Virus record (IMG/VR): IMGVR_UViG_2711768002_000004
Source of the DNA: a virus
Taxonomy: Duplodnaviria > Heunggongvirae > Uroviricota > Caudoviricetes
Reading direction: 5' to 3' (one strand)
DNA length: 39,841 bases
Shown here: one piece after another, positions 683 through 39,841 of the stretch
Position numbering within the stretch: position 1 is the first letter of the stretch
How the letters are laid out: each line of letters starts with the position of its first letter
Notes under the pieces: generated by a model
Seen by the model: only the letters and a program-made list of their open reading frames with translations
Databases searched by the model: none
What the model was told of the DNA's origin: nothing
Translations under genes and position numbers: made by a program

Positions 683-690
683 TTAAGCGT

Positions 691-1428
691 TCATTCACTC
701 TCTTTCAAACCAGTTTTAACTGTTTGTGGTTTTGGGTAAGGCTGGACTTTGAATAGCTTTGTGTTAAGGCGTTTTCTGGCTCTCTTGTCCAGAAACCGGA
801 TGTAACGAAACTGACGGAATTTATGAACACTGGCTCTGTCGATATTAGCCCGCAGATGTTCACCTCGCTGTCCTCCTCGTTTGATTGCATTCTTGCAAAT
901 CTCGTGATACCACTCGCCATCAAGTTCATAGAATGTTGTTTCATGACTGCCTACATAATCAAAATTGCTTGCCTGGTACACGACACCAAGACAGCCACAA
1001 CGCTCATCTGCAAACGACTGAACCCACTGCACCTGCGGATAAAGTTGTCTGATTAGTTTGAGCGCGTAACTGATTGCCCTTGATTCGGAGTTTCTCGGCA
1101 TACAGTCATGCAGCCATAACCGGTTAAGCTCCATATATTCGCGGTTCTGCGTGCCAGTTACGACGCGTGCACCATTGTTTGGATTAAGGGCATAACCCCA
1201 TTGCATTACGCCAACCAGCTCCCGTTCTGAAAATATGCCCAGATGAAGGTAGGAATTATTTACGAAACGATGGCTGTAATGTTTATTGACGACGACCAGC
1301 CGGGCCAGCCAGCAACTTATTGTCTCAACCCGTAACTCACGGGAGCCATAACCGACGATATTGTCGTTATAGTGAATAAGTTCAGGCGTGCTGATGATAC
1401 GGGATGTAACTTGCTTTCTGTTCCCCAC
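691..1428 (-). CDS. mom: Mom-like DNA modification protein (start uncertain; GTG at 1428 with AAGGAAA upstream proposed)
   Basis: Long ORF 691-1623 overlaps com in another frame; gene position and the com overlap mirror Mu com-mom. No in-frame ATG downstream of com until far inside the ORF, so an alternative start is inferred. Confidence 0.65.
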
Positions 1429-8114: not shown

Positions 8115-9187
8115 GTGATTTCTCCTACCGTCAGCAGCTCACTGTCTCCCGCCTGAACTGACGTCAGCGGACTGCGCACTTCAAAATCCTCCAGATTTTT
8201 CACCCCTGCCACCGCCCGCCAGAAAGACGACGGCAGAACCAGACCGCCGGGCCGGGATTCGTTATACAACAGGTCGGTCAGCGCCTGTTTTACGGCCGCC
8301 TGATTCTCCGGTGTTTTCGGGATGATCCTGATGCTGAAGGGCACCGGCTTATTGGTCAGTTTAAACACGGTCACCGTCGGCCCCAGAGGCTGTCCGACAG
8401 GCTGGCCGGTCGCCGGATCATCATGACTGCGGATATAATCCGCCACCCGCTGAACATCACCGTCACCGGGGAAAATATCCGGGTTATTATCCTGAACAAA
8501 CGTTACCCCCACGCTGCCCGCCTGCGGCCATTCCGGGCGGCACCATGCCCGCGTCACGCCCGGCACTTCACGCGCCCAGCGTTCAAAATCATACTGCGTG
8601 CCGCCGGACGGTGGATTCTGCACCCGGAAAACCAGACGGGAAAGCAGCTCCGGCACGGTTTCCACATCCGCACCACCGGTGATCCCCGTTCCGGTCACCG
8701 TGGCCGTCTGGTTGATCCCCGCCTGCGGTGTGATAAATGTCAGTTTTGTCCCTGCCGGGGCATTCCCCGCACGACCGGCACTTTCGGCTTCCACACTGAC
8801 ATTCAGCGTACCGGCCTTACCGGTCAGGGAGGTGGTGATACGGTAAACCACGCCATCACTTCGCTGGAGAAGCACACCTTCCTTGATCCCCGCATCCGTG
8901 GTCAGCATCAGCTGAACCGGCCCGTCCCCCCGAGAGGCAGGCTTACGCATGACGCCCCAGAATGCACAGTGTTTCAGCAGTTCGGCTTCATCGGCTTCGG
9001 TCGGGATGATCTGACGCGCAATCCAGGCCAGATGCTCATGCTCCTGAGCAGATAACCCTGCCTGAGCGTAAGCAATGGCATTCAGGGTGGTTTCATTCAC
9101 ACCCGGCTGCGAGCCGGGCAGGCGCTGGCTGATATCCTGCTGTGTCTGCGTGATTAACTGTGCCAGCGGTAAAGGCTGATAAGGCAT
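8105..9187 (-). CDS. Baseplate J-like protein (Mu gp47-like)
   Basis: 360 aa; position and size; translationally coupled to neighbours. Confidence 0.75.
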   Translation of the reverse strand: MPYQPLPLAQLITQTQQDISQRLPGSQPGVNETTLNAIAYAQAGLSAQEHEHLAWIARQIIPTEADEAELLKHCAFWGVMRKPASRGDGPVQLMLTTDAGIKEGVLLQRSDGVVYRITTSLTGKAGTLNVSVEAESAGRAGNAPAGTKLTFITPQAGINQTATVTGTGITGGADVETVPELLSRLVFRVQNPPSGGTQYDFERWAREVPGVTRAWCRPEWPQAGSVGVTFVQDNNPDIFPGDGDVQRVADYIRSHDDPATGQPVGQPLGPTVTVFKLTNKPVPFSIRIIPKTPENQAAVKQALTDLLYNESRPGGLVLPSSFWRAVAGVKNLEDFEVRSPLTSVQAGDSELLTVGEITWL

Positions 9188-9624
9188 TACTCCCCCTTAA
9201 GATCAGCATAAAAAATCATGGGCCTCACTGAACCATCAGGCAGGGTTATGCGCACCGAAAGCGCCAGCCGCGCGTGTCCCACACGTTCTGCATGACAGAC
9301 CACGGATGACGCCACGCCATCCTGACTGAGCCAGCCCAGCGCCTCATCCGCGTAAGCACGGGCACGGCTTATCACCGAGGCCAGCGTTTTTTCCCGGCTG
9401 AGAAGCCACAGACGGGAGCCAATGGGGCGCGGGCGAAAACTGTCTCCCCACCATCCCCGGCGGTCGCGCGTACCGTCAGGGATTTCATCCGATGCCAGCG
9501 CCCGGCGGTCAGTAAACAGCGAAATCAGAACGGCCGTCAGCAGACTGTCATCCGTCAGCAAGTCGGCACCGTTCAGTTGCAGCGAACCGCACCCCTGATC
9601 CCATACAATTGCAATATCAGCCAT
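9187..9624 (-). CDS. Baseplate protein (Mu gp46-like, GPW/gp25 lysozyme-like family)
   Basis: Start re-picked at ATG 9624 (MADIAIVWDQG...), which overlaps the stop of the upstream gene; the ORF track extension to 9768 is an in-frame run-on. Confidence 0.7.
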   Translation of the reverse strand: MADIAIVWDQGCGSLQLNGADLLTDDSLLTAVLISLFTDRRALASDEIPDGTRDRRGWWGDSFRPRPIGSRLWLLSREKTLASVISRARAYADEALGWLSQDGVASSVVCHAERVGHARLALSVRITLPDGSVRPMIFYADLKGE

Positions 9625-10231
9625 TCTCCGGCGCTCCTGTCTTACTGCCTTTGCCGTTATCCTGATGCACATGGCCGGAATAGGTGATCCCGGCAATAAC
9701 GGCATCAGACATCGTGAACAGCCCGTCTGATTTACCTGTACCATCAAGCACGAAATTACCCTTAACATGCAGGTTTTTATCCACCGTCACATTGCCCGTA
9801 AAGGTGGCCTCCGGCGTATCCACCCGCATCCCCTCATCGGCGTAAATCTCCAGCATTTTGCATGTCACAATAATGCGACCATCCTTTGTTAACCGTATCC
9901 GGTGCCCCTCATGGTGATACACCCCCGTATCTCCGGCTGTGAGTCCGGTCGGGCGGCTGCGCCGGTCTTCCACCACAAGCACCACAGTCTGATCCCGCTG
10001 TCCGCCCAGACAGGCAAAAAAGGTTTCCGCACCCGGCAGGGGAACGCTGATCTGCCCGTACTGCTGGGGACGCTCCACATCATCAAAGGTTTCGCCGTCC
10101 ATGCCGGTGAGCTGCACATTCTGCATTTTCAGTTCGTCATGTGTGCCGGTCAGAACGCCCCGGCCAAACAACAGGCGAATACCGCGCGTTACCGGGGCAA
10201 TCAGGCGGCTGAACACTTCATCATTCATCAA
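9617..10231 (-). CDS. Baseplate spike / assembly protein V (Mu gp45-like)
   Basis: 204 aa; position between the baseplate hub and the gp46-like gene. Confidence 0.7.
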   Translation of the reverse strand: MMNDEVFSRLIAPVTRGIRLLFGRGVLTGTHDELKMQNVQLTGMDGETFDDVERPQQYGQISVPLPGAETFFACLGGQRDQTVVLVVEDRRSRPTGLTAGDTGVYHHEGHRIRLTKDGRIIVTCKMLEIYADEGMRVDTPEATFTGNVTVDKNLHVKGNFVLDGTGKSDGLFTMSDAVIAGITYSGHVHQDNGKGSKTGAPENG

Positions 10232-11345
10232 AGCTGATCCCCTGTTTTTTCATCTGCTGGCGAATAAAGGCATCAACATCGTCACCGGAACCACCCCGGC
10301 CCTTACTGTCCGGCTCTGCCGGAACGATAAAGCCGTCACGCGGTGCCAGTACCAGCCGGGTGACTTCCCCGTTATGTTCATCAAGTAAAAACTCCACCTG
10401 ACAGACCAGCAGTTCAGTCTGTTCTATACCGAAACGCAGGGCTGAAACACCGGTCAGCAGATTGACATCCCATAACCGGCCATCATCCCGGAACCAGCCA
10501 CGCACGGTGGCAGAAAACCGTTCTGAACGGGCAATCGCACGGCGCATTTCACGCAGGGCACGCTGCCGTGCACCGGTGGTGTCTGTCTGTTGATCGGCGA
10601 GGATGATTTTCGACCGGTAGCGGCCGATCTGCTCATCACTGATGACGCCCACAGGTGCTGCCAGACGGGCGGCGGATTCGCTGTCTCCCCGTTTGCCACC
10701 ACCGCGCCCGTGTCCCCGGACACGGTATTCGCTGTATCGTCCTCGCCAGTCCGTGTTGTAATCGGCATCAAGCAGGTTATCTCCCAGCACCAGTCTGTCC
10801 GTCTGCTGGCTTCCTGCCTGGGTGAACACCAGATCGCCGTCAGCATTACTGGTCACCAGCACCCCGCGATGCCGGGCAGCACGGGTCAGCGCATCCGCCA
10901 CGGTTTCTGAGTTTTCCAGCGTAAAAGAGCTGAAGGGGCGTGCAGCCGTGTCGTCGTTAACCTGCCAGCGCACGGCTATCCCGAAGGGCGCACATAAATC
11001 TGCGGCAATCTGTGCCAGCGTCCGGTTGCGCCACTGGCTGCCGGGATGGATGGCGGCACAGTCCACCAGGTCGCCGGTTTTATCCCGACCGCTGATGCTG
11101 ATCTGATGACGGGTTGCACTGATCCGCTGACTGACCTGATCCAGCCAGCCACTGATGACCGTCTGCCCGTTAATTCTGAGCGTCAGGGACTGACCGGTTC
11201 GCAGGGCTGAGGGGATGCGCTCACCGGGCAGCATCAGCCCCAGTTCAAACGACCCGGCCAGATGCTCCAGCGAGCGACGGACGCTGACCGTCAGCCAGCC
11301 GGAAAAAATACTGCCACCGATATACAGTTCAATCCTGCTGCTCAC
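10221..11345 (-). CDS. Baseplate hub / tail protein (Mu gp44-like, P2 gpD-like)
   Basis: 374 aa; MSSRIELYIGGSIFSGWL... ; position after the DNA circulation gene. Confidence 0.7.
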   Translation of the reverse strand: MSSRIELYIGGSIFSGWLTVSVRRSLEHLAGSFELGLMLPGERIPSALRTGQSLTLRINGQTVISGWLDQVSQRISATRHQISISGRDKTGDLVDCAAIHPGSQWRNRTLAQIAADLCAPFGIAVRWQVNDDTAARPFSSFTLENSETVADALTRAARHRGVLVTSNADGDLVFTQAGSQQTDRLVLGDNLLDADYNTDWRGRYSEYRVRGHGRGGGKRGDSESAARLAAPVGVISDEQIGRYRSKIILADQQTDTTGARQRALREMRRAIARSERFSATVRGWFRDDGRLWDVNLLTGVSALRFGIEQTELLVCQVEFLLDEHNGEVTRLVLAPRDGFIVPAEPDSKGRGGSGDDVDAFIRQQMKKQGISFDE

Positions 11346-12687
11346 TGATCACCTCCACGCTGCGGCCACCCGGAACAAAAACCGGATCGGGGATATTGTT
11401 TCTGCGGACAAAATACTGCCAGCGACTGCTGTTGCCGGTGGCACGGTACAGCGTGACCAGTGCCGGTTCGGTGGTGCGAACCATGACCTGAAAAGCACCG
11501 GGAAGATGCACGCTCCGTGTGGTTAAATCTTCTGTCAGCGCAAGCCCTGCATCACGTAATGCAAGGGCAGTCCCGGTATAGCCCTGTGCGGACAGATCCA
11601 GCACCTGTTGTTCCATGGCATCGCTCAAATCCCGGTTGATACGCTGCACATCAGCAGAACTTTCCAGCCAGGCCAGTCCGCCCGAACGGTCAGTATCCTG
11701 AACGTGCGTCGTATTCTGCCGGATGACCTGATCCAGCAGTTTTCCGAGCGTCTGTGCCTGCGACACCAGGGTTGCACTCTGCATCACGCTCCGCAGCAGA
11801 CGGATATTTTTCTGTGCCGCAGGCGTCAGGCCAATCAGGCGCTGTGGATCATCCTGTTCGCTGAGGGTGTAACGCAGGGAGGAAAGTGTGCGGTACAGCT
11901 GCGGCATGGCCTGCTCTGCCATGCTGTCACGGTTTGTGGTCAGGCTGCCGGACGGCGTTCCGGCTTTTCCGGTCAGAGACAGGGAAGGATCGCCGGGCAG
12001 CCCGGTCAGCACGGCAAACATTCCGGCCAGCGATTCAGCCATGCGACGGGGCGCATTAATCAGGGCGGCGGCATTGCCTTTCAGGGCAGTAAAACTGGCC
12101 GTAAAGGCACTGATATCCTGCACAATCCCCATCCCCGAAACGGCATTCTCCAGTGCATCAATCTTATCGCTGATGGTGTCGGTCATGGCCTGTACATCAT
12201 GCAGACCGTCTGAAATCACCGTCCAGCCGTCTGAAAGCGTGTTAAACAGCTGATTCATTGCTGAGCCGCTTTTCTGCTCCAGCGCAGCTGCCGTATCTTC
12301 TGCCACCGCAGGGGCGGTATCGTCACTGGCGGGGATCACGTTGATCGTGAACTCAACCGTTCCCTGCTCGCTGGCGTTATAACGGCTTTCAAAGCTGTTT
12401 ATCAGCACGTTTAACGTGCCGTAATCCGGGTGCATCAGTTCACCGGCACCGGGTGCACGCAGCGCATCACGCAGGCGGCTTCGCTGTGTCTGAAGATCGT
12501 CTCCGGTCACCAGAACCGTGAATGTGAACTCCGGGAGTTTTGGCCCCAGATCATCCGCACCGCCGCTTTCACGCAGTGGGTATTCACGGCGCACAATGTT
12601 ACGTCCGCCCCGTTCCCGCTGCTCCTGATAAACCAGGAACGGTACGCCACGAAAGGAGCCACGCCCCGGCGTGTCAGTAGAGGCCAT
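11329..12687 (-). CDS. DNA circulation protein (Mu gp43-like)
   Basis: 452 aa directly downstream of the tape measure gene. Confidence 0.7.
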   Translation of the reverse strand: MASTDTPGRGSFRGVPFLVYQEQRERGGRNIVRREYPLRESGGADDLGPKLPEFTFTVLVTGDDLQTQRSRLRDALRAPGAGELMHPDYGTLNVLINSFESRYNASEQGTVEFTINVIPASDDTAPAVAEDTAAALEQKSGSAMNQLFNTLSDGWTVISDGLHDVQAMTDTISDKIDALENAVSGMGIVQDISAFTASFTALKGNAAALINAPRRMAESLAGMFAVLTGLPGDPSLSLTGKAGTPSGSLTTNRDSMAEQAMPQLYRTLSSLRYTLSEQDDPQRLIGLTPAAQKNIRLLRSVMQSATLVSQAQTLGKLLDQVIRQNTTHVQDTDRSGGLAWLESSADVQRINRDLSDAMEQQVLDLSAQGYTGTALALRDAGLALTEDLTTRSVHLPGAFQVMVRTTEPALVTLYRATGNSSRWQYFVRRNNIPDPVFVPGGRSVEVISEQQD

Positions 12688-21618: not shown

Positions 21619-21739
21619 ATTGCCTCCGCATAAAGGATGAATATAAAATAAACAGGCGGTCAGTGTACGCTTAACTGGTAAAGTCGGTGCCTGCCTCCGG
21701 GTGGATCATGTATGCGGGTTCGACCCCCGCCACTGACCG

Positions 21740-32999: not shown

Positions 33000-33530
33000 T
33001 TATTTATTCAGTCCGGCGTCCTGTTCAAAAGGCTCGACATAAAAACTTTCAGCGCCTTTATTCACCTTGATACCGGCAATGCCTTTCACAGCATCCGGCT
33101 CCGCCAGGACGGCTTCCTTGTTCACTTCCTCTTTCGTGCGGATGAAACGCTCAAGCCCCATACGGCGCAGCATTTCAATCACACCTTCCACATCACGGCT
33201 GACGCTGCATGATGGCGTTCCCAGCCGCCATGACACCGTTCCGGTGGTCAGATTGGCTGTTTTGGTTTTGCCGCCGTTCGTCAGCTCATCACGGTTGGTT
33301 TTGCACCAGTCCTGAATCCCTTTAAAAAGCACTTTGATTTGCTTTTTAAGATTTTCAATCTGCGGCGTATAACGGGCGGTGATTTCTGCCACTTCGTCAT
33401 TCATCGCCGTTTCCAGGCGCAGCGCCTCTCGCTGAATATCTCCCAGGGTGCGGATATCACGGCTGACTTCTTCCCGGGTCTGCGGTGCCGCCTCGGCTGC
33501 GGCCTTTAATTTTGTAACGCGTTTAGCCAT
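33000..33530 (-). CDS. gam: Gam-like host-nuclease inhibitor (DNA-end binding protein)
   Basis: MAKRVTKLKAAAEAAPQTREEVSRDIRTLGDIQREALRLETAMNDEVAEIT...NRDELTNGGKTKTANLTTGTVSWR...RFIRTKEEVNKEAVL...EPFEQ closely parallels Mu Gam as recalled. Confidence 0.85.
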   Translation of the reverse strand: MAKRVTKLKAAAEAAPQTREEVSRDIRTLGDIQREALRLETAMNDEVAEITARYTPQIENLKKQIKVLFKGIQDWCKTNRDELTNGGKTKTANLTTGTVSWRLGTPSCSVSRDVEGVIEMLRRMGLERFIRTKEEVNKEAVLAEPDAVKGIAGIKVNKGAESFYVEPFEQDAGLNK

Positions 33531-33541
33531 TTTGTTTTTCC

Positions 33542-33835
33542 TTATTGCAGTGTGCCTGATGCTTTATGCACGCGGTGGCGTTTAATGATGGCATCCGCTC
33601 CAAAAGACTGTGCAGATGCCTGAAATTCCGCTGAGAGAAACTGAATAATTGCAGGACTGTGATACTGGAGAATACTTGCATAAACGTCACAGAGTGACGT
33701 CGGCCTGTTATCCGTATCACGTTCTGTTTTCACATCCACTCCAATCTTTTCATGCACTTCAACACAGTCATTGCCTGCCAACTTTTCGTCATGCGAAACA
33801 TGATTAAATTCAAAAATAACGCGTACTTTGCTCAT
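33542..33835 (-). CDS. Hypothetical protein, paralog 2 of a tandem pair
   Basis: Start re-picked at internal Met (MSKVRVIFEFNHV...), immediately after the stop of the upstream paralog. Confidence 0.5.
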   Translation of the reverse strand: MSKVRVIFEFNHVSHDEKLAGNDCVEVHEKIGVDVKTERDTDNRPTSLCDVYASILQYHSPAIIQFLSAEFQASAQSFGADAIIKRHRVHKASGTLQ

Positions 33836-33839
33836 GGAA

Positions 33840-34112
33840 TTACCCCTGTTGATTAAATTCATTACCGTTAATAACCCCGGAAGCCATGCCTCTGTCTTTC
33901 ATGAATGCACTGGCTTTCATTGCCACAAACTCTGCGAAGTTTCTGCTTTCTGCCAGCATAACCACCCCAAAAATCATGGCGGGTCCATTATCTTTCTTCT
34001 TTATTCCGGTTGAACGTATATCCAGACTTACCCCTCTGTGCGTGCTGCCATCAGAGTTTTTGCAGATAACATCTTCCTTGTATTCGAAAATAATGCGTAC
34101 GACTTTACTCAT
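33840..34112 (-). CDS. Hypothetical protein, paralog 1 of a tandem pair
   Basis: MSKVVRIIFEYKED... shares its N-terminal pattern with the next gene. Confidence 0.5.
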   Translation of the reverse strand: MSKVVRIIFEYKEDVICKNSDGSTHRGVSLDIRSTGIKKKDNGPAMIFGVVMLAESRNFAEFVAMKASAFMKDRGMASGVINGNEFNQQG

Positions 34113-34390
34113 CCTCTGGTCCTCGTTCTGTTTGGATAACTGACCCGGCGTCTAACCTCACGGCAGAACCGAATCATGGCATTAAAGGCTTCTTCCTCCG
34201 TCACCGCTTCCGGTATCCCCGGAACCAGTAACTGCTCCTGTTCATCACGTCCATGACGCGCCATAACCTCAATCACATGCCGTACCGTGGCAGGCTTTCC
34301 GGCAACTATCGGCAATGCACCTTCCGGCAGGACGTAACCAAACTCAATAAGACCACTCGACCACGCCCATGCAATGAGATTTTTTTTCAC
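34109..34390 (-). CDS. Hypothetical protein (93 aa)
   Basis: ORF in the early operon. Confidence 0.5.
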   Translation of the reverse strand: MKKNLIAWAWSSGLIEFGYVLPEGALPIVAGKPATVRHVIEVMARHGRDEQEQLLVPGIPEAVTEEEAFNAMIRFCREVRRRVSYPNRTRTRG

Positions 34391-34391
34391 C

Positions 34392-34658
34392 TCACACCTC
34401 CCAGTAAACCGTGCAGCCGCTGATGCGGGTGGCCTTCACACGGCGGCGCAGGCCGTTGGTCTGTATGGTGATTTCAATTTCACCGGTTCCCTGCACGTTG
34501 CCTACCGGCGGCGTGGTTTTCAGTGCAAAACGTTGCGGATAGCGCTTACTGCGTTCCAGTACCGCACCGGCAAGTTCGGTCAGACGGCGCGCGCTGTTCA
34601 GGGAGTCGAATAAATTCATTTTGTTACCGCAGGATTGCATATTCATATAACACCTCAT
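34392..34658 (-). CDS. Hypothetical protein (88 aa; start uncertain)
   Basis: ORF in the early operon. Confidence 0.45.
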   Translation of the reverse strand: MRCYMNMQSCGNKMNLFDSLNSARRLTELAGAVLERSKRYPQRFALKTTPPVGNVQGTGEIEITIQTNGLRRRVKATRISGCTVYWEV

Positions 34659-34886
34659 TTAGCTGACTTGTTTCGCACCAACAGAACGGCATATTCCGCT
34701 GTAAACTTCTGTCGCACCTTCGCGATCAAGTCCGGCAGATATCACCATTCGTGTGCGGTCATTAAATTCAAAAAGTAAATCGCCACATTCTTTATTTTCG
34801 GCCAGTGAAATCACCTTCACGTTATCGAAATTAACCAGGTAAAAGCGTCCGTAAATATCAGGAATATTAAATACCGCCATAATCAC
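34659..34886 (-). CDS. Small early protein directly downstream of B (position of Mu kil)
   Basis: 75 aa; positional analogy only. Confidence 0.45.
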   Translation of the reverse strand: MIMAVFNIPDIYGRFYLVNFDNVKVISLAENKECGDLLFEFNDRTRMVISAGLDREGATEVYSGICRSVGAKQVS

Positions 34887-35824
34887 ACCTGTGAGAGTAA
34901 TTCAGGGTTGGTATAAACCTCTTTAAAGGCCGCATTAATATGTTTTTCTGTCAGCGCCGCGCCTTCACCGCTGGCGGTGAGCCACGCCTGGTTAAGCGTA
35001 TGTGTCAGAACGCGTAACGCTCCCGGCTTTTCAGCGATAGCCTGCATGACGGCCAGCTCGGCCTCACCACTGATCCCCCACGCCATGGCAATGGCCAGCA
35101 CATCCGCCTTTTTGGCCTTGCGAAGTTGTTTTGTACGGGCAAGACGGCTGAACAGGCGCGATAAATCATCAAAGGCGCGGCGTCCACCTTTAAACAATCC
35201 GCGCGGGTTACCAATAAGCACCATCCCGATCCCCGTGGCGTCCTGAATTGCCCGGAGTTGCTCCAGACCGTCAATACCAAGATGATCCGCCTCATCCACA
35301 ATCACCAGTCCACGCGTTCCCATCAGGCGACGGCGGATGGCGCGGGATAATGCCCCTTTGTTCGCGCGGGTGTAATCAATCCCCAGCGCATCGGCCAGCT
35401 CCAGCAGACACTCCGTGACGCTGGAGTGCGCGGGTGACAGGGTGATCATCCAGGTGTTTGGTTGCTCCTGGCAGTAATTACGGGCAGTGGCCGTTTTACC
35501 CACACCCGGTACGCCCACAATAACGTTAATACAGCCCATCAGGCGAACCGCCTGAAACAGTGCGCGCAGCTCCTGGACTGTCTGAGTTTCCACAAACTGC
35601 GGCGGTTCCGGCAGTGCGCTTTGTTTATTCCAGTTCTCATACCAGGAGCGCAGGGAAGCAGCCACAGCAGCGTTATCGCCTTTATATTTTCCCTTACGGA
35701 AAGCCGATAATGTGCCGTCGGAAATTCCCGCCTCTCTGGCGATGGCATACTGCGTCAGTACGCCGCCATCAATAAGTTCATCAATGGTCTTGATTACATC
35801 GTTAATATCGGTCATATTATTCAC
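34883..35824 (-). CDS. B: Transposition protein B (MuB-like ATP-dependent target DNA activator)
   Basis: 313 aa; P-loop VGVPGVGKTATARNY, DEADHLG, and end-to-end similarity to Mu B as recalled (PEPPQFVETQTV..., KPGALRVL...). Confidence 0.9.
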   Translation of the reverse strand: MNNMTDINDVIKTIDELIDGGVLTQYAIAREAGISDGTLSAFRKGKYKGDNAAVAASLRSWYENWNKQSALPEPPQFVETQTVQELRALFQAVRLMGCINVIVGVPGVGKTATARNYCQEQPNTWMITLSPAHSSVTECLLELADALGIDYTRANKGALSRAIRRRLMGTRGLVIVDEADHLGIDGLEQLRAIQDATGIGMVLIGNPRGLFKGGRRAFDDLSRLFSRLARTKQLRKAKKADVLAIAMAWGISGEAELAVMQAIAEKPGALRVLTHTLNQAWLTASGEGAALTEKHINAAFKEVYTNPELLSQV

Positions 35825-35897: not shown

Positions 35898-37985
35898 TCA
35901 GGCCAGCGGATCACTTTCTTTTAATTTCGCTTCGAGCAGTTGCAATCCCCGCTGGAAATTACGCTCGTATTCTTCATCAGGTTCATCGTCAGCGACCGGT
36001 TGCTGAACGGTCACCGTATTACCCACAGGGCGGTATATGTTTTCCAGCCAGGGCTCCTGCGGCTTGTGCTCCAGCACGTTGACAACCTCATCCTCGGCAT
36101 CACGGATTTTTTCCTCTGCGCGTTTACGCATGCCTTTAAGGCGCTGCTGCTGTTTGTAGTATTCCGCGCTGACAGGGAAGGCTTCGCGTTTATTGCCGTC
36201 CCATACCGCCTCGCAAATCACGCTGCCATCCGGGCGGCGCACGGTAATTCGTTCGGCATCATGAATGTCATAGCTGATAAGTACCTTACGGCCATGCTCG
36301 TCACGCAGCTCGGGCGCGTAGTAAATATTATTCAGCCAGCGTATTTCACAGCGTCTTACAGGGCGCTCCACCATCGGCCGGAACATATCCCGCAGTTCAA
36401 CATCGGACAGCCATTCAATTTCCGTGTCCTCTTCCGCCAGGCGTTTTTTTCTGAACTCCGCCGGGCTGTAATGTTTACCGTTCGGCTTCATGGGTAATTC
36501 ATCGTGCGGCCGGTTGTTGTACCACTCAACACCGTCACGAATGGCATCAATCAGTTCAGACCAGGACGGTAAATCACGCATCGCTGACTGCTGCCGGGCG
36601 TTCAGCCGTTTGCCCTGTTGCAGGGCACTGAATGCCGAGCGTAAATCGCGGTTGGTTTTACGTAACGTCTCGCGATCTGCTCCTTTCCCGAAATAGGTGC
36701 GGTATTTACGGGCTATGCGCATCGGTAATGTGCGGTTAAGCCGTTCGATAATGCCCCGTCCCTGCGGATTACCGGCAATCCCTGTCGGGTGATTAATCCC
36801 CAGTCGTGGCAGTATCCCCACAATCTCCTTATCCAGGACGTCGGCGGTTTCCCCGGAGCCATTATCCGAGTAATACAGAAACGGTTTGCCATGATGGCGA
36901 ATACCGTGCTGTATGGCACCGGCTACGGCGAAAACATTTTCAGCCAGGTCAAGGCTCCAGCCCACCACAAAGCGCGTGCCACCGTCGATAACAAAGGTCA
37001 CTTCCGGTGCGAATGGCCGCCCGTGAACCGGGTGCGCGCATTTCAGCTTCATGCCGTGACCGTCACCAATCCAGACATAATTCACCGGCATTCTGGACCA
37101 GTCGCGGCGCGTGAATCCCTCAAGCTGACGGTATTCACTGCCAGTTACCCGGCCTTTTTGTTTCACCACTTCCGGCAGTTTCTTCATTGCGCGGCGAATG
37201 GTGTCATAAGAGGGCATGATATCGAGCATATAAGGCTCATCAGCGTGCCGGTGCTGCCATTCAGCAACAAAATCCTCGTAAGCCTCGGTCATTGGTCGGC
37301 CGTTTGACTGGCGATACTGCGCCAGAAATTCGGGCAGCCAGTTAATATCTTCGGCTTTTATTTCCTGGCGTTTACCCGGTGCCAGTAAAAGCAGGCGTTC
37401 AGCGGCGTTCTGTGCCTTGTTAAAGGCCGCAATCCAGCGTTTCAGCGTGATTTCACTCAACGCGCGGCTGTTTCCCTTTTTGGCGTTCGCCGTCTCAACC
37501 ATTGCCACAATGCGCTCGTCCAGTTGTGATCGTGCCAGGCTGTTAACGAGGAACCGGATAGCTTTAGCGCAGCTGAAACCGGGTTGTTGCGTGAATTTCA
37601 GCACCTCACTGACGATCGCAATGCGTGCGTCTGCCACCTGGCGCTGGTTTTCAGTCAGGGCATTGAGGCGTTCGACCATCAGTTGTGGTGATCCGCGATA
37701 TGCCTCCACCGCATCAACCACGGCAGACGAGCGTCTGGCCTTTGTCACCACCGGAGCCGGTGATTCATCGGCTTTTTGCGTCATCAGTTGCAGGGCATAA
37801 CGTTCGCGTAATGCCTGCTGTGTCACTTCAGGTAAACAGTCAATGCTGTATTCAAAACCTTTAGCGCCTTTCTTGCGGCGTCTGCTGGTTTCGCTGGTTG
37901 CATACTTCCTGATTGAATAGCGAACGCCTTGCTCCGTTCCCGGCATCCCCGGTAATCCAACCAGTTCTTTAACTGAAGCAAACAT
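35898..37985 (-). CDS. A: DDE transposase (MuA-like)
   Basis: 695 aa; N-terminal VSPKE..LPG-like opening (ASVKELVGLPGMPGT) and position directly after ner. Confidence 0.9.
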   Translation of the reverse strand: MFASVKELVGLPGMPGTEQGVRYSIRKYATSETSRRRKKGAKGFEYSIDCLPEVTQQALRERYALQLMTQKADESPAPVVTKARRSSAVVDAVEAYRGSPQLMVERLNALTENQRQVADARIAIVSEVLKFTQQPGFSCAKAIRFLVNSLARSQLDERIVAMVETANAKKGNSRALSEITLKRWIAAFNKAQNAAERLLLLAPGKRQEIKAEDINWLPEFLAQYRQSNGRPMTEAYEDFVAEWQHRHADEPYMLDIMPSYDTIRRAMKKLPEVVKQKGRVTGSEYRQLEGFTRRDWSRMPVNYVWIGDGHGMKLKCAHPVHGRPFAPEVTFVIDGGTRFVVGWSLDLAENVFAVAGAIQHGIRHHGKPFLYYSDNGSGETADVLDKEIVGILPRLGINHPTGIAGNPQGRGIIERLNRTLPMRIARKYRTYFGKGADRETLRKTNRDLRSAFSALQQGKRLNARQQSAMRDLPSWSELIDAIRDGVEWYNNRPHDELPMKPNGKHYSPAEFRKKRLAEEDTEIEWLSDVELRDMFRPMVERPVRRCEIRWLNNIYYAPELRDEHGRKVLISYDIHDAERITVRRPDGSVICEAVWDGNKREAFPVSAEYYKQQQRLKGMRKRAEEKIRDAEDEVVNVLEHKPQEPWLENIYRPVGNTVTVQQPVADDEPDEEYERNFQRGLQLLEAKLKESDPLA

Positions 37986-37987
37986 AA

Positions 37988-38218
37988 TTACGCGACCTTA
38001 CGAATGTAGCGGCTGGGCCAAATCTCCTCGGGCGGCACCCCCAGGCATTCCGCGATAATCCCCTCATACTTGGGAACATGGCGGTATACCGCGTTGTACA
38101 GATTGTTCTGACCCACGCCAGCTTTACGGGCCAGCGCCCTCATGCTTCCTTCTCTGGCTCTGACTTCCCCCAAAATTCTTTGAGGATGCCAATCAGGCTT
38201 AACTTCATTTCTCGCCAT
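37988..38218 (-). CDS. ner: Ner-like DNA-binding early regulator
   Basis: 76 aa; ...DWHPQRILGEVRAREGSMRALARKAGVGQNNLYNAVYRHVPKYEGIIAECLGVPPEEIWPSRY matches Mu Ner pattern; stop is 2 nt before the A start. Confidence 0.85.
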   Translation of the reverse strand: MARNEVKPDWHPQRILGEVRAREGSMRALARKAGVGQNNLYNAVYRHVPKYEGIIAECLGVPPEEIWPSRYIRKVA

Positions 38219-38403
38219 GATTCATCTATCCTAAAAAGTTACGAAATTTGATAACTAAACTTAGTTATCAAGTTTGATATAAGTATTGATCCACTTCTGC
38301 TTCATGTAAAGCAAAAAAAACATCTTTCTTTTGTCTATTGTGGATCAATGGTTGCTGACAACACTAAAAGTTAATAATTTCAAATTGATAGGAAGAAAAG
38401 AAA
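38219..38403. promoter_or_regulatory. Divergent early control region (repressor / ner promoters and operators)
   Basis: 20-bp palindrome GATAACTAAACTTAGTTATC (38250-38269) flanked by TTTGATA repeats; 9-bp inverted repeat TTGATCCAC / GTGGATCAA (38286-38294 and 38340-38348), both containing GATC. Confidence 0.55.
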
Positions 38404-38949
38404 ATGAACAAGCAAACAACAACATCTCTTTCTTTTCCTGGTGGTAGAAAAGAAAGCATTGCTGAGCGTCTGAAAAGGCTGATTGGCTCCCGCAGCGTCA
38501 GAGCTGCAGCAAGAGATTGGGGGCTTTCATTTTCAACACTAAACAATTATCTGTCTCGTGGCACTGAGCCATCCTTAAGTGTCGCCCTTCAGATTGCGTC
38601 TATCGAAGGAGTAAGTGTTGAGTGGCTATGTGGATTCAGTGATGCATCACAAGTGAATCGGTGTGAGATCAAGGAAAATCAAGATGAAAGCAAGAAGATA
38701 ATTATGACGATTATCAGCGCACTTGATGAAAAAGACTTAGAGCAGCTATCGAAAAATTTGGTTCTGAATGGAGCCAAGTACTTAGCTCGGTTGTTAGAGC
38801 CTGAAAATCAAGATCTAATCCGCTTAGAAGGAAGGAAAAGAATAGCTGCATTACAGCTTGAAGGTATGTCTGACGAACGCGTCAGAGAGATTTTGGAAGA
38901 AACTGAGAGAAGTCGCAAATCTAACGCGGTAGAACCAAAAGCGGGTTAA
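38404..38949 (+). CDS. Prophage repressor, XRE/CI-type helix-turn-helix (functional analogue of Mu c)
   Basis: 181 aa; HTH ...SVRAAARDWGLSFSTLNNYLSRGTEPSLSVALQIASIEGVSVEWL; divergent from ner-A-B; no S24 peptidase motif seen. Confidence 0.75.
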   Translation: MNKQTTTSLSFPGGRKESIAERLKRLIGSRSVRAAARDWGLSFSTLNNYLSRGTEPSLSVALQIASIEGVSVEWLCGFSDASQVNRCEIKENQDESKKIIMTIISALDEKDLEQLSKNLVLNGAKYLARLLEPENQDLIRLEGRKRIAALQLEGMSDERVREILEETERSRKSNAVEPKAG

Positions 38950-39185
38950 TAGCATTAGCCCGCATTTTGCACTATATCGAGTATTTCGCATTGTTTGGAA
39001 CGCCTTAAAAGACTAAAACCACAGTATCAAATGAGTTGCCGATTTTATAATAAATGACTAATTATTGCACAATCGGTATCAAATAGACCTTATCCGCACA
39101 TCTAGCCATCACCTGTTTTATTTCAGTATCTTACAGGTGATTTCACCTCCTTTCACTAAACCCCTTGTCGGTATCAAATGATTCA
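38950..39185 (-). repeat. Prophage left end with three transposase-binding-like direct repeats
   Basis: (C)GGTATCAAAT at 39023-39032, 39074-39084 and 39169-39179; on the phage strand the element would begin 5'-TGAATCATTTGATACCG. Confidence 0.6.
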
Positions 39186-39506
39186 CCTGGTTATATGTCG
39201 CCAGTCGATACCTTCCAGCAGCATCGCCAGCTGCGCCTGTGTAAGGAACACTTTGCCATCACGGGCTGACGGCCAGGCGAAGCGCCCACGCTCCAGCCGT
39301 TTGGTCAGGAGGCACAGTCCGTCACTGGTGGACCACAGCAGTTTAACCTGACTGCCGCTGCGGCCCCGGAAAATGAAAACATGGCCGGACATGGGATCGT
39401 CTTTCAGCGCCGTCTGTACTTTCGCAGCCAGGCCGTTGAAGCCATTTCTCATATCGGTGATACCGGCAACCAGCCAAATTTTGATCCCGGAAGGTAACGG
39501 GATCAT
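39183..39506 (-). CDS. tnpB: IS66-family TnpB (orf2); 3' end apparently fused to the prophage terminus
   Basis: MIPLPSGIKIWLVAGITDMRNGFNGLAAKVQTALKDDPMSGHVFIFRGRSGSQVKLLWSTSDGLCLLTKRLERGRFAWP...; stop codon TGA (39185-39183) coincides with the putative TG terminus of the prophage. Confidence 0.85.
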   Translation of the reverse strand: MIPLPSGIKIWLVAGITDMRNGFNGLAAKVQTALKDDPMSGHVFIFRGRSGSQVKLLWSTSDGLCLLTKRLERGRFAWPSARDGKVFLTQAQLAMLLEGIDWRHITR

Positions 39507-39841
39507 CGCTTCAGTTCCTGTATCAGCAGAGTCAGGAGCTTTTCGCTGACATTGCCATTGAAGCGGAGCGTCCCGTGCCGGAACGTTACCTCACAGCTGA
39601 TACTGAGGGTTTTCGGGTCCTCTGCGAGCGATTCTGGCTGTTCGGCAGCTGCATCGAGAGTCACAGGAAGTAGCTGGGGGCTCTCTGAAGAAGGTAATAG
39701 CTGAGGTGTACTGGCAATAGCGGACACTACCATTTGTTCTTTTTTTAAGCAGCCATCTGATGATATTTTTCCCTGAAGGCTGCCGGGGAGATATTCCCCA
39801 GACGAGAGTGACGACGCTGACGATTGTAGAAAATCTCAATG
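39503..39841 (-). CDS. tnpA: IS66-family TnpA (orf1), partial; frame open to the window end
   Basis: Upstream of and overlapping tnpB; ...EKLLTLLIQELKR C-terminus; reading frame has no stop up to 39841. Confidence 0.55.

Follow-up and report, generated by a model that had tools for sequence, protein, structure and literature searches.

Left-end repeats of an Sp18-type Mu-like prophage are predicted transposase binding sites with inverted counterparts at the right end

The three short repeats at the left end of the prophage studied here are very probably the inner halves of three predicted sites for transposase binding (L1–L3), each about 19 bp long, which belong to a Mu-like prophage of the Sp18 type and are matched by inverted sites (R1–R3) at its right end. 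The whole stretch of DNA that was analysed, 39,841 nucleotides long, is referred to below as the window. An earlier note on this DNA had taken the repeats to be left-end recognition sites of the transposase of this element. This view was supported by the inverted copies at the right end, by conservation between lineages and by covariation with the transposase, from which we infer the binding itself.

The window holds a minus-strand Mu-like prophage, probably of the type of Sp18 of E. coli O157. The genes close to the repeats and the flank on the host side are as follows.

34883–35824, minus strand: MuB-type AAA+ target-delivery ATPase (Pfam Phage-MuB_C and AAA_22)
35898–37985, minus strand: MuA-family transposase of 695 aa (Pfam HTH_Tnp_Mu_1 and Mu-transpos_C), the predicted binder of the repeats
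37988–38218, minus strand: Ner-like regulator (Pfam HTH_35)
38404–38949, plus strand: repressor of the XRE/cI type (Pfam HTH_3), unrelated to the transposase
39196–39841, minus strand: IS66-family tnpB/tnpA flank on the host side, 84% identical to the ISEc22 tnpB/tnpA in L003, another copy of the prophage

Next to the repeats, therefore, lies the gene for a full-length MuA homologue and then that for a MuB homologue, and the Mu-like late genes come after the latter. The prophage breaks the flanking tnpB about 37 bp ahead of the tnpB stop codon. The left part of the window consists of IS66-family tnpC sequence followed by a run of N at 561–682. The two IS66-family flanks (1–560 and 39196–39841) were unequally similar to ISEc22, the tnpC end (151–560) at 99.8% and tnpB/tnpA (39196–39607) at 84%. 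The sequences that border the N gap may therefore come from separate IS66-family copies, as could result from a scaffolding join or a rearrangement. Several prophage copies bear a RefSeq feature named 'tRNA-OTHER' between genes for head morphogenesis (18474–18553 in L001, corresponding to about 21658–21737 of the window); ARAGORN, run over the whole window, found no tRNA.

Four lineages of the prophage were compared: lineage A, to which the window belongs; lineage B, found in STEC and O157:H7 genomes and probably equivalent to the published Sp18 type; and lineages C and D. The left-end features, with phage positions counted from the left terminus, are as follows.

39192–39195, minus strand: left terminus of the prophage, 5'-TATA on the phage strand; 39195 is the last prophage base
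39169–39187, minus strand: L1, the terminal predicted transposase binding site (phage positions 9–27), with the core ATTTGATACC, which is GGTATCAAAT at 39170–39179 on the plus strand; its register is that of R1 in intact copies
39093–39168, minus strand: L1–L2 spacer, which holds most copies of CAGGTGA/TCACCTG and is conserved in lineages A and B
39074–39092, minus strand: L2, predicted site (phage positions 104–122), core at 39075–39084; lineages A, B1 and B2 share an unchanged core between diverging flanks
39022–39040, minus strand: L3, predicted site (phage positions 156–174), with the core AGTATCAAAT at 39023–39032, ending ...GATACT

The sequence GTATCAAAT was found three times in the window, in a single orientation, at 39024, 39076 and 39171. 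Extended to 10 bp, the copies all lie on the plus strand, as AGTATCAAAT (with one mismatch) at 39023–39032 and as GGTATCAAAT at 39075–39084 and 39170–39179, and their starts are separated by 52 and 95 bp. The three same-orientation copies claimed for the left end were thus confirmed. The number of 10-mer matches in the whole window (5, against 2.3 expected) was not significant as a count. Unlike this plain count, the clustering of the repeats is significant: GTATCAAAT was the sole 9-mer in the window that occurred three times without overlap, in the same orientation and within 200 bp, and any such 9-mer triple within 200 bp appeared in only 5 of 300 windows simulated with a first-order Markov model.

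The left terminus was set from 12 complete E. coli genomes in which this prophage occurs, at 94.7–100% identity, in different genes (PilZ/bcsA, ybaE, elyC, citD, paaA, xdhA and others). Because homology with these 12 genomes ends at 39195, this position is the left terminus of the prophage, and its left end on the phage strand reads 5'-TATAACCAGGTGAATCATTTGATACC. The terminus had earlier been predicted at 39185, 10 bp short of the actual position, and the distances of 6, 101 and 153 bp given for the repeats are corrected to 16, 111 and 163 bp, measured to the ends of the motif copies. On the inner side of the repeats, a GCGGG...CCCGC hairpin followed by ATTTTG is found at 38941–38973, where it overlaps the stop codon of the repressor gene and faces the prophage end. 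This hairpin was not called by the terminator scan; it may limit read-through across L3–L1.

In the window, the right end of the prophage is hidden.

561–682, no strand: N gap, covering the right end of the prophage (its last 120 bp, with R1–R3) and the host junction

Window positions 683–1100 are identical to positions 39529–39112 of L001, an intact copy inserted in ybaE, the right end of which is at 39649. Since position 683 of the window corresponds to base 39529 of L001, the last 120 bp of the prophage fall within the N gap, and therefore the window itself shows only the left set of sites. The search for the inverted motif at the right end, which had been proposed as a check, was thus carried out on intact relatives (99.6–100% identity), and three inverted copies were found there. 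The right-end sequence of L001 and of other intact copies is ...AGTATCAAATAAG...GGTATCAAATGAA...GGTATCAAAAAAATCGCCGCGCTATA. In the intact prophage of 38,634 bp, the 8-mer TTTGATAC occurs seven times; six of these copies face inward, no more than 175 bp from a terminus, and one is internal. The terminal copies are placed at 18, 113 and 165 from the left terminus in forward orientation and at 18, 40 and 75 from the right terminus in reverse orientation. L1 and R1 are in identical register, with the core at positions 18–25 from each terminus.

The exact ends were further examined in eleven pairs of left and right ends from independent insertions. Ten of the 11 pairs were flanked by a 4-bp direct repeat (AACA, GACG, TACG, TAGA, GTAT, GTGA, TTCA, AGCC, CAAC and AGAA), which directly abutted the constant ends TATA (or TGTA) ... 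(T/A)TA. For ybaE, the empty site was reconstructed with AACA present once, and this sequence was found at 100% identity over 120 nt in thousands of genomes. Parses with a 5- or 6-bp duplication were rejected, since the additional base proved in every case to be an invariant T or A belonging to the element itself and since AACA is present only once at the empty ybaE site. The eleventh pair (L022/L026, lineage D) showed no duplication. It is flanked by two non-adjacent ycj-cluster genes, one for a sugar ABC permease (L022, at about 1800) and one for an SDR oxidoreductase (L026, at about 4800), a sign of a deletion that the prophage caused or that arose next to it. Lineage B (STEC/O157) has the termini TG...TA, and the other three lineages have TA...TA. 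The presence of the element at 13 or more different loci, bounded there by short duplications, shows that it transposes from exactly these ends. For the window, the corresponding feature is the following.

39196–39199, plus strand: predicted left copy of the 4-bp target duplication, TGTC on the plus strand and GACA on the phage strand, deduced from the duplications at 10 of 11 related insertions; its counterpart is missing because of the gap

Several copies of the prophage carry insertion sequences: ISEc43 and ISEc22 (IS66 family) in L003, at 8948–11364 and 33479–35814, and ISKpn26 (IS5 family) in L002, at 9135–10115. The transposase gene is frameshifted in one copy (L003). In view of the interrupted copies and of this frameshift, many copies of the prophage are probably immobile.

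Comparison with the ends of other Mu-like prophages, also proposed by the earlier note, was made across the four lineages. Their transposases are 93% (B), about 80% (D) and 74% (C) identical to that of lineage A; the only two loci returned by a transposase scan of species-representative genomes were of lineage C. At the right end, the cores are located at 18/40/75 in lineages A, B and D and at 19/41/76 in lineage C, so that the spacing is unchanged. At the left end, they are located at 18/113/165 in A and B, 18/122/164 in D and 19/90/142 in C. The right-end spacing and the cores were therefore kept, while the spacers diverged. The left end of lineage B is in parts about 78% identical to that of lineage A. 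When A and two B variants were aligned without gaps, the TTTGATAC(C/T)G blocks showed no change, whereas the L2–L3 spacer and the inner flank diverged.

Alignment of all 24 sites delimited a site of about 19 bp (columns 9–27). Its terminus-proximal half, AA.T.ATT, was kept in all four lineages. Lineages A, B and D have ATTTGATAC as the inner half and lineage C has TTCAAGATAA, which replaces TTTGATAC at all six sites, at both ends, 36 kb apart. Judged from this alignment, each site appears to be bipartite, with the outer half AA.T.ATT and, in the lineage of the window, the inner half TTGATAC(C/T)G.

A second family of repeats is present at the left end. Four copies of CAGGTGA/TCACCTG were observed (TCACCTG at 39109–39115, CAGGTGA at 39134–39140, TCACCT at 39143–39148 and TCACCTG at 39183–39189); the set includes a perfect AGGTGAAATCACCT palindrome, and the outermost copy overlaps the outer part of L1. 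These repeats are absent at the right end, and a Mu-like spacer takes their place in lineage D. A role as a pac signal or as an accessory-factor site is possible.

The transposase of the window was matched to MuA with 99% probability by hhalign, collinear with MuA residues 3–663, at 23% identity in BLASTP. Profile alignment placed the equivalents of the MuA regions I-alpha, I-beta and I-gamma at about residues 1–75, 87–200 and 205–285, respectively. The transposases of lineages C and D are 98–100% identical from residue 201 to about residue 640 and only 36–62% identical in residues 1–200 (42–45% in residues 121–200). Thus, the change of the inner half-site at all six sites accompanies a swap of the first approximately 200 residues of the transposase, and the part that differs between C and D comprises the I-alpha and I-beta equivalents; the swapped segment also spans c and ner besides the I-alpha equivalent. 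The transposases of lineages A and B differ mainly in residues 1–40 (38% identity), which belong to the I-alpha equivalent, and both lineages have the same end motif. This argues against reading of the end motif by the I-alpha equivalent. Considering that the site positions were kept, that the spacers diverged and that the half-site covaries with the transposase, it may be concluded that the repeats mark transposase binding sites of the L1–L3 type.

In MuA, the ends are bound via I-beta and I-gamma and the enhancer via I-alpha (PMC3362531). In the complex of the homologous TnsB, I-gamma and the linker contact positions 5–19 and I-beta contacts positions 20–30 (PMC9371665), and this pattern fits which half-site covaries with which part of the transposase. 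By analogy, we infer that the inner half-site pairs with the I-beta-like part and the outer half-site with the I-gamma-like part. An AlphaFold model of residues 1–300 had a mean pLDDT of 53.6, with values below 50 for residues 79–214, the I-beta-equivalent region, and a Foldseek search with this model recovered only the I-alpha domain 1tns and the DNA-binding domain of the Mu repressor, 1qpm. Because the pLDDT of the model was low and only these two domains were recovered, the I-beta and I-gamma folds are without structural confirmation. When the transposase was searched against PDB sequences with phmmer, I-alpha and retroviral integrase cores only were returned, and the MuA core was not found.

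The following mechanism may be proposed by analogy with MuA. The I-gamma-like part of the transposase, itself conserved, would read the conserved outer half-site, and the I-beta-like part (about residues 87–200) would read the lineage-specific inner half-site. Transposase monomers seated on L1–L3 and R1–R3 would pair the two ends, cleavage would take place after the terminal ...TA-3', and the ends would be joined, with a 4-nt stagger, to target DNA delivered by the MuB-type protein.

It had also been suggested that the motif is the recognition sequence of the repressor. It is very improbable that the repeats are operators used in common by the transposase and the repressor (or Ner), an idea modelled on Mu c and MuA. 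Two palindromes, TATCAAacTTGATA and TTGATAACTAAgtTTAGTTATCAA, lie in the c–ner intergenic region at 38246–38275, and their half-site resembles the end core. It is this resemblance, between the TTGATAAC/TATCAA palindromes of the c–ner region of this lineage and the end core, that speaks for a shared operator. However, the operator repeats are TTGATAAC/TATCAA in this lineage, TTATCCG in lineage D and GGATATCCG in lineage C. Because lineage D has the same end motif with another operator, and lineage C has yet another, the operator and end motifs vary independently. The repressor, being of the HTH_3/cI type, also showed no similarity to the transposase (BLASTP E = 1.1): the N-terminus of the transposase is like Mu I-alpha (1tns), and the N-terminal domain of the repressor is not an I-alpha homologue. 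Moreover, the target that c and MuA have in common in Mu is the operator/enhancer, contacted via I-alpha, and not the ends (PMC3362531). The suggested role in repressor recognition was therefore left unsupported.

It is equally hard to believe that the repeats serve packaging or bind a host architectural protein instead of the transposase. The pac signal of Mu is located in the left end near L1, and the CAGGTGA repeats of the prophage are likewise specific to the left end, both of which would suit such a role. However, a pac signal is expected at one end only, whereas the right end has the motif too, inverted and in the same register. The motif also covaries with the N-terminal region of the transposase, and no change in host factors would be expected from one E. 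coli lineage to another. As for chance repeats in AT-rich non-coding DNA, the unremarkable 10-mer count is all that agrees with them, and this explanation has practically no probability left and was already refuted by the comparative data, given the rarity of such 9-mer triples and the fixed coordinates that are kept in diverged lineages and mirrored at the right end.

Read as transposase binding sites, the repeats can be set beside those of Mu, in which attL and attR carry the MuA sites L1–L3 and R1–R3 (Craigie et al. 1984, summarised in PMC3145075 and PMC3362531). Mu, like this prophage, has three sites per end, which adjoin the c-ner-A-B genes (PMC3145075). In both elements L1 and R1 begin a few bp from the terminus, R1 and R2 are 22 bp apart, and L1 is set apart from L2–L3 by about 100 bp, with spacings of 105 and 40 in Mu and 95 and 52 here. 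The likeness in spacing to L1–L3 of Mu was thus borne out. Anchored on CGAAA, the left-end sites of Mu have the positions 22/127/167 and the right-end sites 22/44, R3 being inverted, whereas all three right-end sites are direct in this prophage.

The assertion that the motif differs from the Mu consensus held in part. The core here, ATTTGATAC(C/T)G, is without the CGAAA half of Mu, and the 22-bp MuA consensus is not matched. However, the motifs are not unrelated, because TCATTTGA is common to the Mu site consensus and this motif (TCAYTTGA being the only part in common) and because the left end of lineage D, which has the same motif, aligns with Mu attL at the DNA level, with an L1–L2 spacer about 80% identical to that of Mu by manual count. 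In a MAFFT alignment, the L1 regions of lineage D and Mu were separated by a 5-nt gap beside the terminus; since the conserved block here (9–27) covers about the same positions as Mu L1 (6–27), this gap was not read as a change of geometry. Further differences lie in the termini (TA...TA or TG...TA here, TG...CA in Mu), in the target duplication (4 bp here, 5 bp in Mu) and in the repressor, which belongs to a type other than that of Mu c. Elements of this kind are well known; this family departs from Mu in its recognition sequence, TA termini, 4-bp duplication and direct R3.

The prophage and Sp18 of E. coli O157:H7 Sakai probably belong to the same family, a likening made through relatives rather than through the Sp18 sequence itself: STEC and O157:H7 genomes carry lineage B, with a transposase (P0001) at 93% identity and with the same end motif and site coordinates. 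Sp18 is presented in the reports consulted (PMC2669165, PMC7430833) only as an intact, transposition-competent Mu-like prophage, and these give no account of its ends, binding sites or target duplication length. Nor did the literature searched hold any report of a 4-bp duplication or of the ends of Sp18-type prophages. Duplications of 5 bp are reported for Mu and of 6 bp for both B3 and Leptospira prophages, the latter prophages having TA-TA or TG-CA ends (PMC8705779). TA ends and duplications other than 5 bp thus occur among Mu-like phages, in hosts and with transposases that are distant from this family. The nearest transposases of isolated phages outside the family are those of Haemophilus SuMu (43% identity) and of Pseudomonas D3112-like phages (about 30%). 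Their end repeats differ, those of SuMu being of the TTTTGCATAG type, in a record that does not start at the terminus.

The exact ends and cis-acting sites are now defined for a very common prophage family of E. coli, and because one transposase cluster alone holds 7,044 member sequences, the calling of prophage boundaries is improved. The 4-bp duplication and the TA termini widen the known range of transposable phages, for which 5 or 6 bp was found in the literature searched. The natural exchange of a domain together with a half-site ties an N-terminal transposase segment of about 200 residues to one half-site, a link that is directly testable and that could yield orthogonal tools of the mini-Mu type. 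The wider proposition, to which we give somewhat better than an even chance, is that a widespread Sp18-type family in E. coli, Shigella and Salmonella combines a 4-nt stagger and ...TA-3' termini with mutually exclusive pairs of N-terminal domain and half-site (TTTGATAC or TTCAAGATAA). If this is true, the family would offer a ready-made orthogonal MuA-like transposase system and would allow a direct test of what determines the stagger in a DDE transpososome.
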